Origin: Escherichia coli
GTDB lineage: Bacteria > Pseudomonadota > Gammaproteobacteria > Enterobacterales > Enterobacteriaceae
NCBI RefSeq assembly: GCF_002854065.1
Contig: NZ_CP024147.1
DNA: 64,000 nt
Direction: 5' to 3' (one strand)
The position numbers are program-made. This document shows positions 45,901 to 51,900 of the stretch, piece after piece. Numbering within the stretch: position 1 is the first letter of the stretch; every line of letters begins with the position of its first letter.

Positions 45901-48900
45901 GTAGTATTCCACGCGCACCGCGCCATGAGAGTGGATCCCTCTGGCATCGGCGTAAACCAATACTTCAGCCACGGTTGCAGCGTGCTCACGTTTTAACCCA
46001 GCCTGGCAGAGCTTATTCTCGATTAGCTGGTGGAGTGTTTCCCGACTGATTTTCATCTGTCTTCCTTTTGAACGACGGTGTGAAGCATGACTGCAATTAA
46101 CATACAGGGAAAATATCTGGATTATGTGATCCAGACAGGCAAAAAAATATAGTTAGAATTTATTTGATAATCTTCGCGCTTTTAACCTGGTTTTTAAAAC
46201 AACCATGCTTATTAAAAAATAACGCGTAATAGTCTGGCGGTTATTTGAATTCTTTTGTTAATAATCCCTGTGTGATATTCATCACCTTATTTACTCGTTG
46301 TCATCGATACCGTAATCGCCACATTAACACTGCTCGTGCAATTGCCATGGGTGCAATTTTTAAGGAGTTGTTATGAACCACGCCTTTATTAAAAAAGGGT
46401 GTTTTCAGGATTCGGTCAGTTTAATGATTATTTCACGAAAACTCAGCGAATCAGAAAATGTTGATGATGTTTCCGTAATGATGGGTACGCCCGCCAATAA
46501 AGCGTTATTAGATACCACAGGTTTCTGGCATGACGATTTTAATAACGCCACGCCGAACGATATTTGCGTGGCAATTCGTAGCGAAGCGGCGGATGCGGGG
46601 ATCGCGCAGGCGATTATGCAGCAGCTTGAAGAGGCGCTAAAACAACTGGCGCAGGGGGCAGGCAGCAGCCAGGCGTTGACGCAGGTGCGTCGCTGGGACA
46701 GTGCCTGTCAGAAATTACCCGATGCCAATCTGGCGCTGATTTCAGTGGCTGGCGAGTATGCGGCGGAGCTGGCGAATCAGGCGCTGGATCGCAACCTCAA
46801 CGTGATGATGTTCTCCGATAACGTCACGCTGGAAGATGAAATCCAACTTAAAACCCGCGCGCGGGAAAAAGGCTTGCTGGTGATGGGGCCGGACTGCGGT
46901 ACGTCGATGATTGCCGGCACGCCGCTGGCTTTTGCTAACGTGATGCCGGAAGGCAACATTGGCGTCATTGGCGCTTCCGGTACCGGGATTCAGGAGCTGT
47001 GCTCGCAGATTGCGCTGGCAGGGGAGGGAATTACTCACGCGATTGGCCTTGGCGGCCGCGACCTCAGCCGTGAAGTGGGCGGCATCAGTGCGCTAACAGC
47101 GCTGGAAATGCTCAGTGCAGACGAGAAAAGCGAAGTGCTGGCATTTGTTTCAAAACCACCTGCCGAAGCTGTGCGTCTGAAAATTGTTAATGCCATGAAA
47201 GCAACCGGCAAACCGACGGTGGCGCTGTTTTTAGGTTATACCCCGGCGGTGGCCCGCGACGAGAATGTCTGGTTTGCCTCCTCGCTGGATGAGGCCGCAC
47301 GCCTGGCTTGCCTGCTTTCACGCGTTACGGCGCGACGTAACGCGATAACGCCTGCCAGCAGCGGATTTATTTGCGGTTTGTATACCGGCGGTACGCTGGC
47401 TGCCGAAGCGGCGGGATTACTTGCCGGACACCTTGGCGTGGAAGCCGATGATGCCCATCATCACGGCATGATGCTCGACGCCGATGGTCACCAGATTATT
47501 GACCTCGGCGATGATTTCTACACCGTCGGGCGTCCCCATCCGATGATCGACCCAACCTTACGCAACCAGTTAATTGCCGATCTCGGCGCTAAACCGTCAG
47601 TGCGCGTATTGCTACTTGATGTCGTGATTGGCTTCGGCGCGACCGCCGATCCTGCCGCCTCGCTGGTAAGCGCCTGGCAAAAAGCCTGTGCTGCGCGTTC
47701 AGACAATCAACCACTGTATGCCATTGCCACGGTGACAGGCACTGAACGTGACCCGCAATGCCGCTCGCAGCAAATCGCCACGCTGGAAGATGCGGGGATT
47801 GCGGTCGTGAGTTCGCTACCGGAAGCCACCTTGCTGGCGGCAGCGTTAATTCATCCGCTCTCGCCTGCCGCACAGCAACACACACCGTCATTACTGGAAA
47901 ACGTCGCCGTGATTAACATCGGATTACGCAGTTTTGCGCTGGAGCTACAAAGCGCCAGCAAACCGGTTGTGCATTACCAATGGTCGCCAGTCGCCGGCGG
48001 CAATAAAAAACTGGCTCGTTTATTAGAACGTTTGCAATAAGGGGTTCCCATGTTTACATCAGTGGCGCAAGCCAATGCTGCGGTTATCGAACAAATTCGT
48101 CGCGCTCGTCCACACTGGCTGGATGTGCAACCGACTTCTTCACTTATCAGCGAACTAAACCAGGGCAAAACACTGCTTCACGCCGGGCCGCCAATGCGCT
48201 GGCAGGAGATGACCGGACCCATGAAAGGGGCGTGCGTGGGCGCATGTCTGTTCGAAGGTTGGGCGAAAGATGAAGCGCAGGCGCTGGCAATACTGGAGCA
48301 GGGGGAAGTGAACTTCATTCCTTGTCACCATGTGAATGCCGTCGGGCCAATGGGCGGCATTACTTCTGCCAGTATGCCGATGCTGGTGGTCGAGAATGTG
48401 ACCGACGGCAACCGGGCGTACTGCAACCTCAACGAAGGTATCGGCAAAGTGATGCGTTTTGGCGCTTACGGCGAAGATGTCCTGACTCGCCATCGCTGGA
48501 TGCGCGATGTGTTAATGCCAGTATTAAGCGCGGCGCTGGGGCGCATGGAGCGCGGTATCGATCTTACCGCGATGATGGCGCAGGGCATTACCATGGGCGA
48601 TGAGTTCCATCAACGCAATATTGCTTCCTCAGCACTGTTAATGCGTGCGCTGGCCCCACAAATTGCTCGCCTCGATCATGATAAACAGCACATCGCGGAA
48701 GTGATGGATTTCCTCAGCGTGACCGATCAGTTCTTCCTCAACCTCGCGATGGCTTACTGCAAGGCGGCGATGGATGCTGGCGCGATGATCCGCGCAGGCA
48801 GCATCGTCACGGCAATGACCCGCAACGGCAATATGTTCGGGATTCGGGTAAGCGGGCTGGGCGAACGCTGGTTTACTGCGCCTGTAAACACTCCGCAAGG

Positions 48901-51900
48901 TCTGTTTTTCACCGGCTTCTCGCAGGAGCAGGCGAACCCGGATATGGGCGATAGCGCGATTACCGAAACCTTTGGTATCGGAGGTGCGGCAATGATCGCA
49001 GCGCCTGGCGTAACGCGCTTTGTCGGTGCGGGTGGCATGGAAGCGGCCAGGGCGGTATCTGAAGAGATGGCGGAAATTTACCTTGAACGCAATATGCAGT
49101 TGCAGATCCCAAGCTGGGATTTTCAGGGCGCGTGCCTGGGACTGGACATTCGTCGCGTGGTAGAAACCGGCATTACGCCACTCATCAATACCGGTATCGC
49201 CCATAAAGAGGCGGGGATCGGGCAGATTGGCGCAGGCACCGTGCGGGCACCGCTGGCGTGCTTTGAACAGGCGCTGGAAGCACTGGCTGAAAGCATGGGT
49301 ATTGGTTGAGAAACGCGCAATGACGATCATCCATCCTCTGCTTGCCAGTAGTAGCGCACCGAATTATCGCCAGTCCTGGCGGTTAGCGGGAGTGTGGCGG
49401 CGGGCGATTAACCTGATGACGGAAAGCGGCGAACTGTTAACGCTGCATCGTCAGGGTAGTGGTTTCGGCCCCGGAGGATGGGTGCTTCGCCGCGCGCAAT
49501 TCGATGCGTTATGCGGTGGATTATGCGGCAATGAACGACCGCAGGTTGTGGCTCAAGGTATTCGCCTCGGGCGTTTCACGGTTAAACAGCCACAGCGTTA
49601 TTATTTGCTGCGTATTACGCCGCCTGCGCATCCTCAACCGCTTGCAGCTGCATGGATGCAACGCGCGGAGGAAACCGGGCTTTTCGGGCCACTGGTGTTG
49701 GCGGCAAGCGATCCGCTGCCTGCTGAATTACGCCAGTTTCGTCACTGTTTTCAGGCCGCGCTCAATGGCGTTAAGACCGACTGGCGGCACTGGCTGGGTA
49801 AAGGCCCCGGATTAACGCCAAGTCATGATGACACGCTGAGCGGAATGCTGCTGGCGGCCTGGTATTATGGTGCTTTAGATGCGCGCTCCGGTTGCCAGTT
49901 TTTTGCCTGTTCCGACAATCTTCAACTCGTTACCACAGCGGTGAGCGTCAGTTATTTACGTTATGCCGCGCAAGGATATTTCGCCTCGCCACTCCTGCAC
50001 TTTGTTCATGCTCTGAGTTGCCCGAAACGTACCGCTGTTGCGATTGATTCGCTGCTGGCGCTGGGGCATACGTCAGGGGCAGATACACTGCTGGGGTTCT
50101 GGCTTGGTCAACAATTATTACAAGGAAAACCATGAAAACACTGGTTGTAGCTCTTGGGGGCAATGCCTTGCTTCAGCGCGGTGAGGCGCTGACGGCAGAA
50201 AATCAATATCGCAATATCGCCAGTGCTGTACCCGCGCTGGCACGCCTGGCCCGTTCTTATCGGCTGGCGATTGTTCACGGCAACGGGCCGCAGGTGGGGC
50301 TGCTGGCGTTACAGAATCTGGCGTGGAAAGAGGTAGAACCGTATCCGCTGGATGTGCTGGTGGCGGAAAGCCAGGGGATGATTGGCTATATGCTGGCGCA
50401 GAGTTTGAGCGCACAGCCGCAGATGCCGCCTGTCACGACGGTGCTGACGCGCATTGAGGTTTCGCCTGATGATCCGGCGTTTTTGCAGCCAGAGAAATTT
50501 ATTGGTCCGGTTTATCAGCCAGAAGAACAAGAGGCACTGGAAGCGGCTTACGGCTGGCAGATGAAACGTGATGGTAAATATTTGCGCCGGGTGGTGGCGT
50601 CTCCGCAACCGCGTAAAATTCTCGACAGCGAAGCCATCGAGTTGTTGCTCAAAGAGGGGCATGTGGTGATTTGCAGTGGCGGCGGCGGTGTGCCTGTGAC
50701 GGATGACGGAGCAGGGAGTGAAGCAGTGATTGATAAAGATCTCGCCGCTGCGTTGCTCGCCGAGCAAATTAACGCCGATGGACTGGTGATCCTCACCGAT
50801 GCTGATGCGGTATATGAAAACTGGGGAACGCCGCAGCAACGTGCCATTCGCCATGCCACACCGGATGAGTTAGCGCCATTTGCCAAAGCCGATGGTTCGA
50901 TGGGGCCGAAGGTAACGGCGGTGAGTGGTTATGTCAGAAGCCGTGGTAAACCCGCGTGGATTGGGGCGTTATCGCGAATTGAAGAGACGCTGGCGGGCGA
51001 AGCGGGGACCTGTATTTCGCTGTAGTGATGAGAGCATCCGGCAATCGGTGCACCATGCCTGATGCGACGCTTGACGCGTCTTATCAGGCCTACAATGGGT
51101 ACCGGAGCGGTAAGCCGGATAAGGCGTTCACGCCGCATCCGGCAATCAAATGAGCACCAGGTTAACTGAACTTACTCTGTGCCCACATCACACCGCTGGC
51201 ATACTCCGGCGGCAGTAGCGGGATTAAGGCTTCCAGCGTCGCGGACAGACGCGATGTGTCGCTGTCGGTCAAATTCAGATGCCCCACTTTACGGCCCGGA
51301 CGGACTTCTTTGTCGTACCAGTGCAGATGCACCAGCGGCAGTTTCAGCCAGTCATAATTCACATCGCTACCAATCAGGTTGATCATCACCGACGGACTAT
51401 TTACTACCGGTTGCGGTAACGGCAGATCGGTAATCGCCCGCAGATGCAGCTCAAACTGGCTGATGCTGGCACCGTTTTGTGTCCAGTGACCGCTGTTATG
51501 CACACGCGGAGCCAGTTCGTTGATCAGCAGACCTTGCGGGGTGACAAAACACTCCATCGCCATCACGCCCACATAGCCCAGCTCCTGCATAATCGCCGAC
51601 AGCATCTCTTCGGCTTGCGCTTGCTGCTGCGCATTGGCCTGCGGAAAAGCGACGCTGGTGCGCAAAATACCGTCCTGATGCAGGTTATGCGTCAGCGGAT
51701 AAAACACGGTGCTGCCATCAAAACCGCGCGCGCCAACCAGCGACACTTCACCAGAGAAGTTTATGCCCTGCTCGACTATACATTCGCCGTAGCATTCAGC
51801 CGGTAACTGTTCGGTTTCATCGGCGCGTAAACGCCATTGACCGCGACCGTCATAGCCACCAGTGCGACGCTTAACAATCGCCAGCTCACCTAAACGATCA

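Follow-up and report, generated by a model that had tools for sequence, protein, structure and literature searches.

The four closely spaced open reading frames (ORFs) fdrA, ylbE, ylbF and ybcF, which lie on the + strand at 46373-51025 of the window (i.e., the whole stretch of 64,000 nucleotides of Escherichia coli DNA analyzed here), very probably constitute the standard allFGHK operon, which encodes the enzymes for the final two steps in the anaerobic degradation of allantoin and has already been described. The intact ylbE (allG) within it is the wild-type gene, as present in almost every E. coli and also in the current MG1655 reference. The K-12 ylbE "pseudogene" is a discrepancy of a single base in a homopolymer of superseded reference records. 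The features are listed in Table 1.

Table 1. Coordinates of the allFGHK operon and flanking features in the window
Feature	Position	Strand	Description or basis
allE-allC-allD, divergent from the operon	42954..46056	-	ORFs; names from CUWW06 and K-12
Spacer of 316 bp between the divergent allD and allF (fdrA), with the allF promoter	46057..46372	+	Colinear with K-12
allF (fdrA), 555 aa, ATG start	46373..48040	+	Oxamic transcarbamylase subunit; succinyl-CoA-synthetase-alpha-like scaffold
allG (ylbE), 419 aa, uninterrupted, ATG start	48050..49309	+	Oxamic transcarbamylase subunit, formerly DUF1116
Run of five G residues (G5), ylbE nt 252-256	48301..48305	+	Window aligned with MG1655 v3 and W3110
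allH (ylbF), 271 aa	49320..50135	+	Oxamic transcarbamylase subunit, formerly DUF2877
allK (ybcF), 297 aa, ATG start	50132..51025	+	Catabolic carbamate kinase
allK-purK convergent intergenic region, REP-type palindromic repeats	51026..51161	.	Alignment

A listing of the ORFs in the window bore out the sequence-only reading in so far as it had described an intact fdrA-ylbE-ylbF-ybcF cluster with ylbE as a single ORF of 419 codons. None of the four genes contains an internal stop. They are separated by 9 nt (fdrA-ylbE) and 10 nt (ylbE-ylbF), and the stop codon of ylbF overlaps the start codon of ybcF by 4 nt (ATGA). The ylbF ORF was originally listed as 49227-50135 from a TTG codon, and we adopted the ATG at 49320 in line with the annotations of K-12 and of strain CUWW06. 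Among 5426 complete genomes of E. coli, 5407 contain 80% or more of the 5.4-kb stretch, so that these ORFs represent real, conserved genes rather than chance reading frames.

All four products matched subunit or kinase families above the curated cut-offs. In the family-model search AllF scored 1040 bits against NF004760 (cut-off 433); it contains a CoA_binding domain (PF02629, residues 193-287, 49.7 bits) and a Ligase_CoA domain (PF00549, residues 336-491, 127 bits), and matched PDB entry 3DMY ("Protein fdrA") with 1011 bits. AllG scored 326.7 bits against PF06545 ("AllG", cut-off 27), and its homologue with a solved structure is 3CLQ (E = 2.7e-111). AllH scored 101.5 bits against PF11392 ("AllH", cut-off 25), and AllK scored 620.9 bits against the carbamate kinase model NF006926 (cut-off 416) and 426.5 bits against TIGR00746 (arcC). 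The Pfam titles of PF06545 and PF11392 now read "Oxamate carbamoyltransferase subunit AllG/AllH". RefSeq/PGAP product names ("acyl-CoA synthetase FdrA", "DUF1116", "DUF2877") trail the published function in most genomes.

The operon was then compared with its counterpart in K-12 MG1655 (b0518, b4572, b0520 and b0521), which has the same gene order, strand and spacing and the same gene lengths (1668, 1260, 816 and 894 nt). Identity across the four genes was 98.0-99.0% at the nucleotide level and 98.4-99.7% at the protein level. The proteins are equal in length to those of MG1655, with identical residues at 546 of 555 positions in AllF, 417 of 419 in AllG, 267 of 271 in AllH and 296 of 297 in AllK, so that the differences are allelic only (nine, two, four and one substitutions, respectively). 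From the high protein identity and the identical gene organization we infer that the window copies act like the K-12 proteins. Residue 296 of AllF is the wild-type aspartate, ruling out the gain-of-function D296Y variant of FdrA in the window.

The surroundings are also those of K-12, with allD upstream in divergent orientation and purK downstream in convergent orientation. Full-length ORFs for allS, allA, allR, gcl, hyi, glxR, allW, allB, ybbY, glxK, allE, allC and allD occupy 30988-46056, and synteny follows the K-12 arrangement (allS-allA-allR-gcl-hyi-glxR-allW-allB-ybbY-glxK / allE-allC-allD / allFGHK-purK). A simple scan of 51026-51161, after allK, revealed no site resembling an intrinsic terminator; REP repeats are found there instead, the window carrying one copy of about 60 nt fewer than K-12.

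The names and coordinates of allE, allC and allD were taken from K-12 and from strain CUWW06, which is near-identical over that stretch, shares coordinates with the window there, and was the top match for the 5.4-kb stretch among E. coli genomes (shown as 100.0%). That the window is CUWW06 itself was ruled out by direct comparison: CUWW06 carries an IS5 at the place that corresponds to 37117-38420 of the window (5' part of allW) and an IS1 at the one that corresponds to 61574-62378 (sfmD/sfmH), both sites being intact in the window. Elsewhere the two differ by 15 SNPs, those at 46070 and 49311 falling within the span of the operon region.

The sequence-only reading also set the intact ylbE against a frameshifted pseudogene annotated in K-12 MG1655, but this contrast is out of date, since NC_000913.3 carries an intact coding sequence of 1260 nt (b4572, YP_009029994.1). 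When the window was aligned with the K-12 locus, ylbE proved to be of the same length in both, with 98.97% DNA identity (13 nucleotide and two amino acid differences), an outcome that essentially refutes the proposed contrast with K-12. A three-way alignment placed the K-12 frameshift in a homopolymer at ylbE nt 252-256, where the window and MG1655 v3 both have five G residues (G5), keeping the 419-codon frame open, and the old reference allele has four (G4), cutting the reading frame short after 86 codons. This old allele (U00096.2-era MG1655 and W3110) is the same gene at the same locus and differs from the window at few positions; it also has A rather than G at nt 114, a synonymous change. 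In published accounts the older MG1655 reference lacks a G at 547,831 and has an SNP at 547,694 (PMC5460176, PMC4759930, PMC3045373), and the G5 run in the window agrees with the reported +G at 547,831 (PMC5460176). The W3110 record NC_007779.1 retains both changes and is flagged "frameshifted".

One could argue that K-12 lost ylbE by frameshift and that the source strain of the window keeps, or has regained, a function that K-12 is without. The "frameshifted" flag in the W3110 RefSeq record, and older papers naming ylbE among the pseudogenes of the MG1655 reference, would fit this view. However, for MG1655 it is already refuted by the intact gene in NC_000913.3, MG1655 stocks that were resequenced, like ATCC 47076, are ylbE+ (PMC4759930, PMC5460176, PMC3045373), and other MG1655, C600 and ER1709 records have G5. 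A census with an 81-nt probe, which matched 5,417 E. coli records, found the G4 allele in only four of them, W3110 and three assemblies in K-12 coordinates. In all four it sits at 547,792 or 547,793, the position it has in the old reference. The ylbE match was exactly 1260 nt long in 59 of 60 records sampled evenly down the match ranking. Moreover, MG1655 converts allantoin into oxamate in an allG-dependent manner (PMC11326118), so its ylbE must be functional. We therefore give the loss of ylbE from K-12 practically no credence and regard the intact gene as the ordinary one. The label lives on in the RefSeq entry for W3110 and in a handful of old-coordinate assemblies, which is a caution for annotation.

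The cluster had further been proposed as a candidate for the oxalurate/oxamate carbamoyltransferase step of allantoin catabolism. This assignment is correct, although the operon is no new candidate, because the function has already been established experimentally (PMC11326118, PMC9843812, PMC12535856) and has entered the Pfam names. In the work of Kim & Kim (2024), fdrA-ylbE-ylbF proved to encode oxamic transcarbamylase (OXTCase) and were renamed allFGH; the purified AllF-AllG-AllH enzyme has KM values of 1.3 mM for carbamoyl phosphate and 36.9 mM for oxamate (PMC11326118). Oxamate was absent from ΔallF and ΔallG mutants and reached 1.2 mM in a ΔallH mutant, versus 17.7 mM in the wild type, and full complementation of a triple mutant required allF, allG and allH, no single gene restoring activity (PMC11326118). 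Kim & Kim (2022) identified ybcF (allK) as the catabolic carbamate kinase, purified K-12 YbcF being active, and found by RT-PCR that the four K-12 genes are co-transcribed (PMC9843812). The genes of the divergent allECD group provide oxalurate, the substrate of AllFGH (PMC12535856).

By analogy with K-12, AllD would oxidize ureidoglycolate to oxalurate, AllF-AllG-AllH would convert oxalurate and phosphate into oxamate and carbamoyl phosphate, and AllK would transfer the phosphate of the latter to ADP, giving ATP, NH3 and CO2. The function of allFGHK was a 60-year orphan-enzyme problem solved in 2022-2024, of which the window holds an ordinary allele; its coding regions suggest no new function, none of the results contradicts the assignment, and we consider this lead closed.

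The four genes would be transcribed together, starting at a promoter within the 316 bp between allD and allF that is predicted to be turned on by AllS (the allantoin signal) and ArcA (anaerobiosis). A Shine-Dalgarno sequence, AAGGAG, lies 6 nt upstream of the allF ATG, and a simple scan for sigma-70 sites gave four, versus 3.9 in shuffled sequences, an absence of excess for which no promoter was called from it. In K-12, AllS and ArcA are needed for expression of the operon and bind its promoter (Kim & Kim, 2025; PMC12535856), the electrophoretic mobility shift assay (EMSA) fragments, tested with crude lysates, being -203/-144 for AllS and -142/-83 for ArcA-P (PMC12535856). Their counterparts in the window are 46170-46229 and 46231-46290, respectively. 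The promoter region differs from that of K-12 at 13 of 316 bp, of which nine fall within the 60 bp of the AllS fragment and three within the 60 bp of the ArcA fragment, and because of these differences identical regulation in the window is an assumption. Thus, the genes might be intact and yet the operon be regulated differently, or be silent, in this lineage through the substitutions in the AllS region, where nine of 60 positions differ, whereas the coding regions diverge by about 1-2%. We consider this unlikely, because many records share the window allele (613 of them with 99% identity or more) and the allS and allR ORFs are full-length in the window. The identity continuum, extending down to 95.9%, together with those 613 records also ruled out a rare or recombinant allele as the origin of the SNP cluster. 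Since the window allele is common, it is K-12 that is the outlier. There is, then, an outside chance that the control of the oxamate branch by AllS and ArcA, known in detail from K-12 alone, differs quantitatively in most wild E. coli.

AllF has the CoA_binding and Ligase_CoA domains in common with the superfamily of SucD and the ADP-forming acyl-CoA synthetases. In a local BLASTP alignment, residues 118-290 of AllF matched residues 66-238 of E. coli SucD with 21% identity (E = 5e-9). These domains and the weak similarity to the alpha subunit of succinyl-CoA synthetase (SCS), the RefSeq product name "acyl-CoA synthetase FdrA", and a context-based CanOE prediction of 2012 (PMC3364942, as summarized in PMC8550087) would all favor the idea that FdrA is an acyl-CoA synthetase, as in its PGAP name, or an oxamate:CoA ligase, leaving YlbF alone as the carbamoyltransferase. 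However, deletion of fdrA stops oxamate from being made rather than from being removed, and a test for SCS activity gave a negative result (PMC8550087), while OXTCase is a purified three-protein preparation whose genes fail singly to restore activity (PMC11326118). The similarity to SucD also ends, at SucD residue 238, before the catalytic His246; the phosphohistidine loop (GHAGA in SucD) was not detected in AllF by BLASTP, and inspection of AllF residues 291-352 revealed no histidine. Nor did BLASTP detect similarity between the C-terminal half of AllF and SucC, and the cluster encodes no SucC-like ATP-grasp partner, AllG and AllH matching only their own families in Pfam at E values up to 10. 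Searches of Pfam and PDB sequences at the same threshold for distant relatives of AllG and AllH returned those families and 3CLQ only, with no solved relative of AllH. On this evidence, such a division of roles between FdrA and YlbF is highly improbable.

For AllF as a subunit of oxamic transcarbamylase, the lack of a phosphohistidine loop detectable at the sequence level suggests that the protein may retain a fold like that of the succinyl-CoA synthetase alpha subunit and yet transfer the carbamoyl group directly to bound phosphate, with no phospho-enzyme intermediate. The chemistry would be analogous to that of SucD, with phosphate attacking a carbonyl to form an acyl (here carbamoyl) phosphate that later makes ATP. 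Unlike SucD, however, AllF requires AllG and AllH, which are unrelated partners.

With the classical transcarbamylases, i.e., aspartate transcarbamylase (ATCase, PyrB), ornithine transcarbamylase (OTCase, ArgI/ArgF) and YgeW, AllFGH shares the reaction class, carbamoyl transfer with carbamoyl phosphate on one side and an amino or amide nitrogen on the other, but no similarity in sequence. No Pfam or NCBIfam match to the OTCase/ATCase domains that bind carbamoyl phosphate and Asp/Orn was found in the four window proteins, in agreement with PMC11326118. Whereas the classical enzymes are homotrimeric, AllFGH needs three different subunits (PMC11326118).

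The window is E. coli chromosome, and of 5426 complete E. coli genomes, 5407 contain a match that covers 80% or more of its segment 46000-51400; identity is 95-99% in nearly all of them. The ORF listing placed four plus-strand frames, fdrA-ylbE-ylbF-ybcF (allF, allG, allH and allK), at 46373-51025, exactly as the sequence-only reading had described them. Spacers of 9 and 10 nt separate the first three genes, and ylbF runs into ybcF through a shared ATGA. A good Shine-Dalgarno sequence (AAGGAG) precedes fdrA. The mechanical ORF start of ylbF is a TTG at 49227, giving an 83-nt overlap with the 3' end of ylbE, but nothing points to real use of this longer form (extension 49227-49319). 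No clear Shine-Dalgarno sequence was obvious in the 10-nt ylbE-ylbF spacer (GAAACGCGCA), so translation of ylbF is probably coupled to termination of ylbE.

Positions of the cluster genes and of other genes discussed
Feature	Position	Strand	Length	Remark
fdrA (allF)	46373-48040	+	555 aa	ORF listing
ylbE (allG)	48050-49309	+	419 aa	ORF listing; single unbroken frame
ylbF (allH)	ATG 49320	+	271 aa	start as annotated in K-12 and CUWW06
ybcF (allK)	50132-51025	+	297 aa	ORF listing
allW	37326-38780		484 aa	full-length in window
sfmD	59332-61941			full-length in window
sfmH	61954-62961			full-length in window
type I secretion ATPase/permease	14285-16447			after giant ORF
HlyD-family adaptor	16444-17619			just upstream of cueR

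The locus had seemed notable on the premise that ylbE is a frameshifted pseudogene in K-12 MG1655. This premise is obsolete: NC_000913.3 annotates an intact coding sequence (b4572, YP_009029994.1; 548357-549616, 1260 nt), and comparison with it finds in substance the intact K-12 gene that the sequence-only reading had itself named as evidence against its claim. The window and MG1655 genes are equal in length and differ at 13 nucleotides (98.97% identity), with two amino acid differences, A29T and E38Q, in AllG. The K-12 record for W3110 (NC_007779.1; ylbE at 2582-3840 of L005, our handle for it) still lists the gene as "frameshifted", at 1259 nt. In a three-way alignment with the window, W3110 and MG1655 v3 differed at exactly two positions of ylbE, i.e., nucleotide 114 (A in W3110, G in MG1655 v3) and a run of five Gs at 252-256 (window 48301-48305), from which W3110 lacks one G, so that its frame stops after 86 codons. 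Resequencing papers list both changes for MG1655 when it is compared with its old reference sequence, as 547,694 A>G and 547,831 +G, with the comment "Two mutations make ORF" (PMC5460176). The ylbE+ allele is present also in MG1655 ATCC 47076 (PMC4759930), and intact ylbE has been termed "an intact ancestral gene" (PMC3045373).

An 81-nt probe from W3110 spanning its G4 run matched 5,417 records, five of them in the ≥99% band and only four at 100%: W3110, CAR, LIM and CIT (the last three being NZ_CP026026.1, NZ_CP026027.1 and NZ_CP026028.1). All four matches lie at 547,792 or 547,793, the position of the segment in the W3110 record and in old MG1655 numbering, and this shared coordinate suggests that the G4 alleles may be mistakes carried over from that reference and have no biological basis. 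The remaining listed matches, including other MG1655 assemblies, C600 and ER1709, span 82 nt and hence have G5. Among 60 records sampled evenly across the whole ranking, window ylbE was matched over exactly 1260 nt in 59; the sixtieth has a deletion. In wild-type MG1655 about 90% of allantoin ends up as oxamate, a conversion lost on deletion of allG (PMC11326118). On the allele census, the length sample and this allG-dependent oxamate production, intact ylbE is the wild-type state in nearly all E. coli, and the "pseudogene" goes back to a homopolymer discrepancy in records that have been superseded.

The oxalurate/oxamate carbamoyltransferase role proposed for the cluster was right, but had already been published for the K-12 orthologues (PMC11326118), and the function of these genes was predicted from context in 2012 (PMC3364942). 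The four genes are co-transcribed by RT-PCR, and purified YbcF, renamed AllK, is a catabolic carbamate kinase with a KM of 0.47 mM for carbamoyl phosphate (Kim & Kim 2022, PMC9843812). Single deletion of allF or allG abolished oxamate production and deletion of allH lowered it to 1.2 mM, and full rescue of an allF/allG/allH triple mutant took all three genes together; purified AllF-AllG-AllH, whose published subunit stoichiometry is provisional, interconverts oxamate plus carbamoyl phosphate and oxalurate plus Pi (KM 1.3 mM for carbamoyl phosphate and 36.9 mM for oxamate; Kim & Kim 2024, PMC11326118).

The window proteins are 98.4-99.7% identical to their K-12 orthologues, and all four far exceed the cut-offs of their family models: FdrA with NF004760 (1040 bits, plus CoA_binding and Ligase_CoA domains), YbcF with the carbamate kinase equivalog NF006926 (620.9 bits), YlbE with PF06545 (326.7 bits) and YlbF with PF11392 (101.5 bits). 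Pfam currently names PF06545 "Oxamate carbamoyltransferase subunit AllG" and PF11392 likewise "AllH"; NCBIfam release 20 has no model matching either. The remaining allantoin regulon, allS through allD, is present as full-length ORFs at 30988-46056, colinear with K-12. Taken with the K-12 data, this gives us high confidence that the window operon would do the same job as its K-12 counterpart: AllD would supply oxalurate, AllFGH would phosphorolyse it to oxamate and carbamoyl phosphate, and AllK would then make ATP and release NH3. The function of the cluster is already known: it has been published, and current databases include it. Most RefSeq E. coli genomes retain the names "acyl-CoA synthetase FdrA", "DUF1116 domain-containing protein" and "DUF2877 domain-containing protein"; "oxamate carbamoyltransferase subunit AllH family protein" is used only by newer PGAP runs.

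High anaerobic, allantoin-dependent expression requires AllS and ArcA, which bind fragments at -203/-144 and -142/-83, respectively, upstream of allF (Kim & Kim 2025, PMC12535856). The 316-bp allF promoter region differs from K-12 at 13 positions, with 9/60 substitutions in the equivalent of the AllS fragment and 3/60 in that of the ArcA fragment (window 46170-46290), whereas the flanking genes diverge by only about 1-2%. Because 613 records share the window allele at 99% identity or more and K-12-type strains lie at the far end of the ranking (95.9%), these differences are ordinary variation within the population and do not single out this strain. K-12, in which allF regulation was worked out, is itself the divergent end for this promoter. 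Of the nine residues at which AllF departs from its K-12 counterpart, none is D296, which is altered in the published gain-of-function variant D296Y. The convergent allK-purK spacer (51026-51161) is made up of REP-type palindromic repeats, with one copy of about 60 nt fewer than in K-12; as a simple scan of this spacer revealed no intrinsic terminator, the repeats may form the 3' end of both transcripts or stabilise them.

CUWW06, the nearest of the complete genomes, is about 99.97% identical outside two insertion sites: it has IS5 where the window (37117-38420) holds the 5' portion of allW, which encodes the allantoin transporter, and IS1 where the window (61574-62378) holds the sfmD/sfmH junction. 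The window starts within a giant ORF (region 11-17619) that spans 4756 aa or more and has internal repeats about 73% identical; the near-identical CUWW06 gene, 19.6 kb long, is annotated "BapA-related adhesin SiiEA". A small YadA-family autotransporter adhesin gene (18735-19751, minus strand), intact in CUWW06 (338 aa), is cut short in the window by a TAG in place of Gln codon 134, owing to a single-base difference at 19352, and has a second, missense difference at 19247. The ybbP-selU (mnmH) spacer is 812 bp (29013-29824), and in CUWW06 a dinQ-like type I toxin gene is annotated there (about window 29330-29485, minus strand). The match to the K-12 stretch compared starts only at selU; in K-12 this spacer presumably holds the rhsD element.

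We know of no structure of the AllF-AllG-AllH complex; solved structures exist for FdrA (3DMY) and for a homologue of AllG (3CLQ). AllG and AllH had no detectable relatives beyond their own families, and the C-terminal half of AllF showed no similarity to SucC, the β subunit of succinyl-CoA synthetase. AllF 118-290 aligns with residues 66-238 of the α subunit, E. coli SucD (21% identity, E 5e-9), but the alignment ends eight residues short of His246, which is the catalytic phosphohistidine of SucD, and histidine is absent from AllF 291-352. Our hypothesis, which concerns the enzyme family and not a property of the window, is that AllF may be a succinyl-CoA synthetase α-like scaffold that now serves to form an acyl(carbamoyl) phosphate with no phospho-enzyme step.
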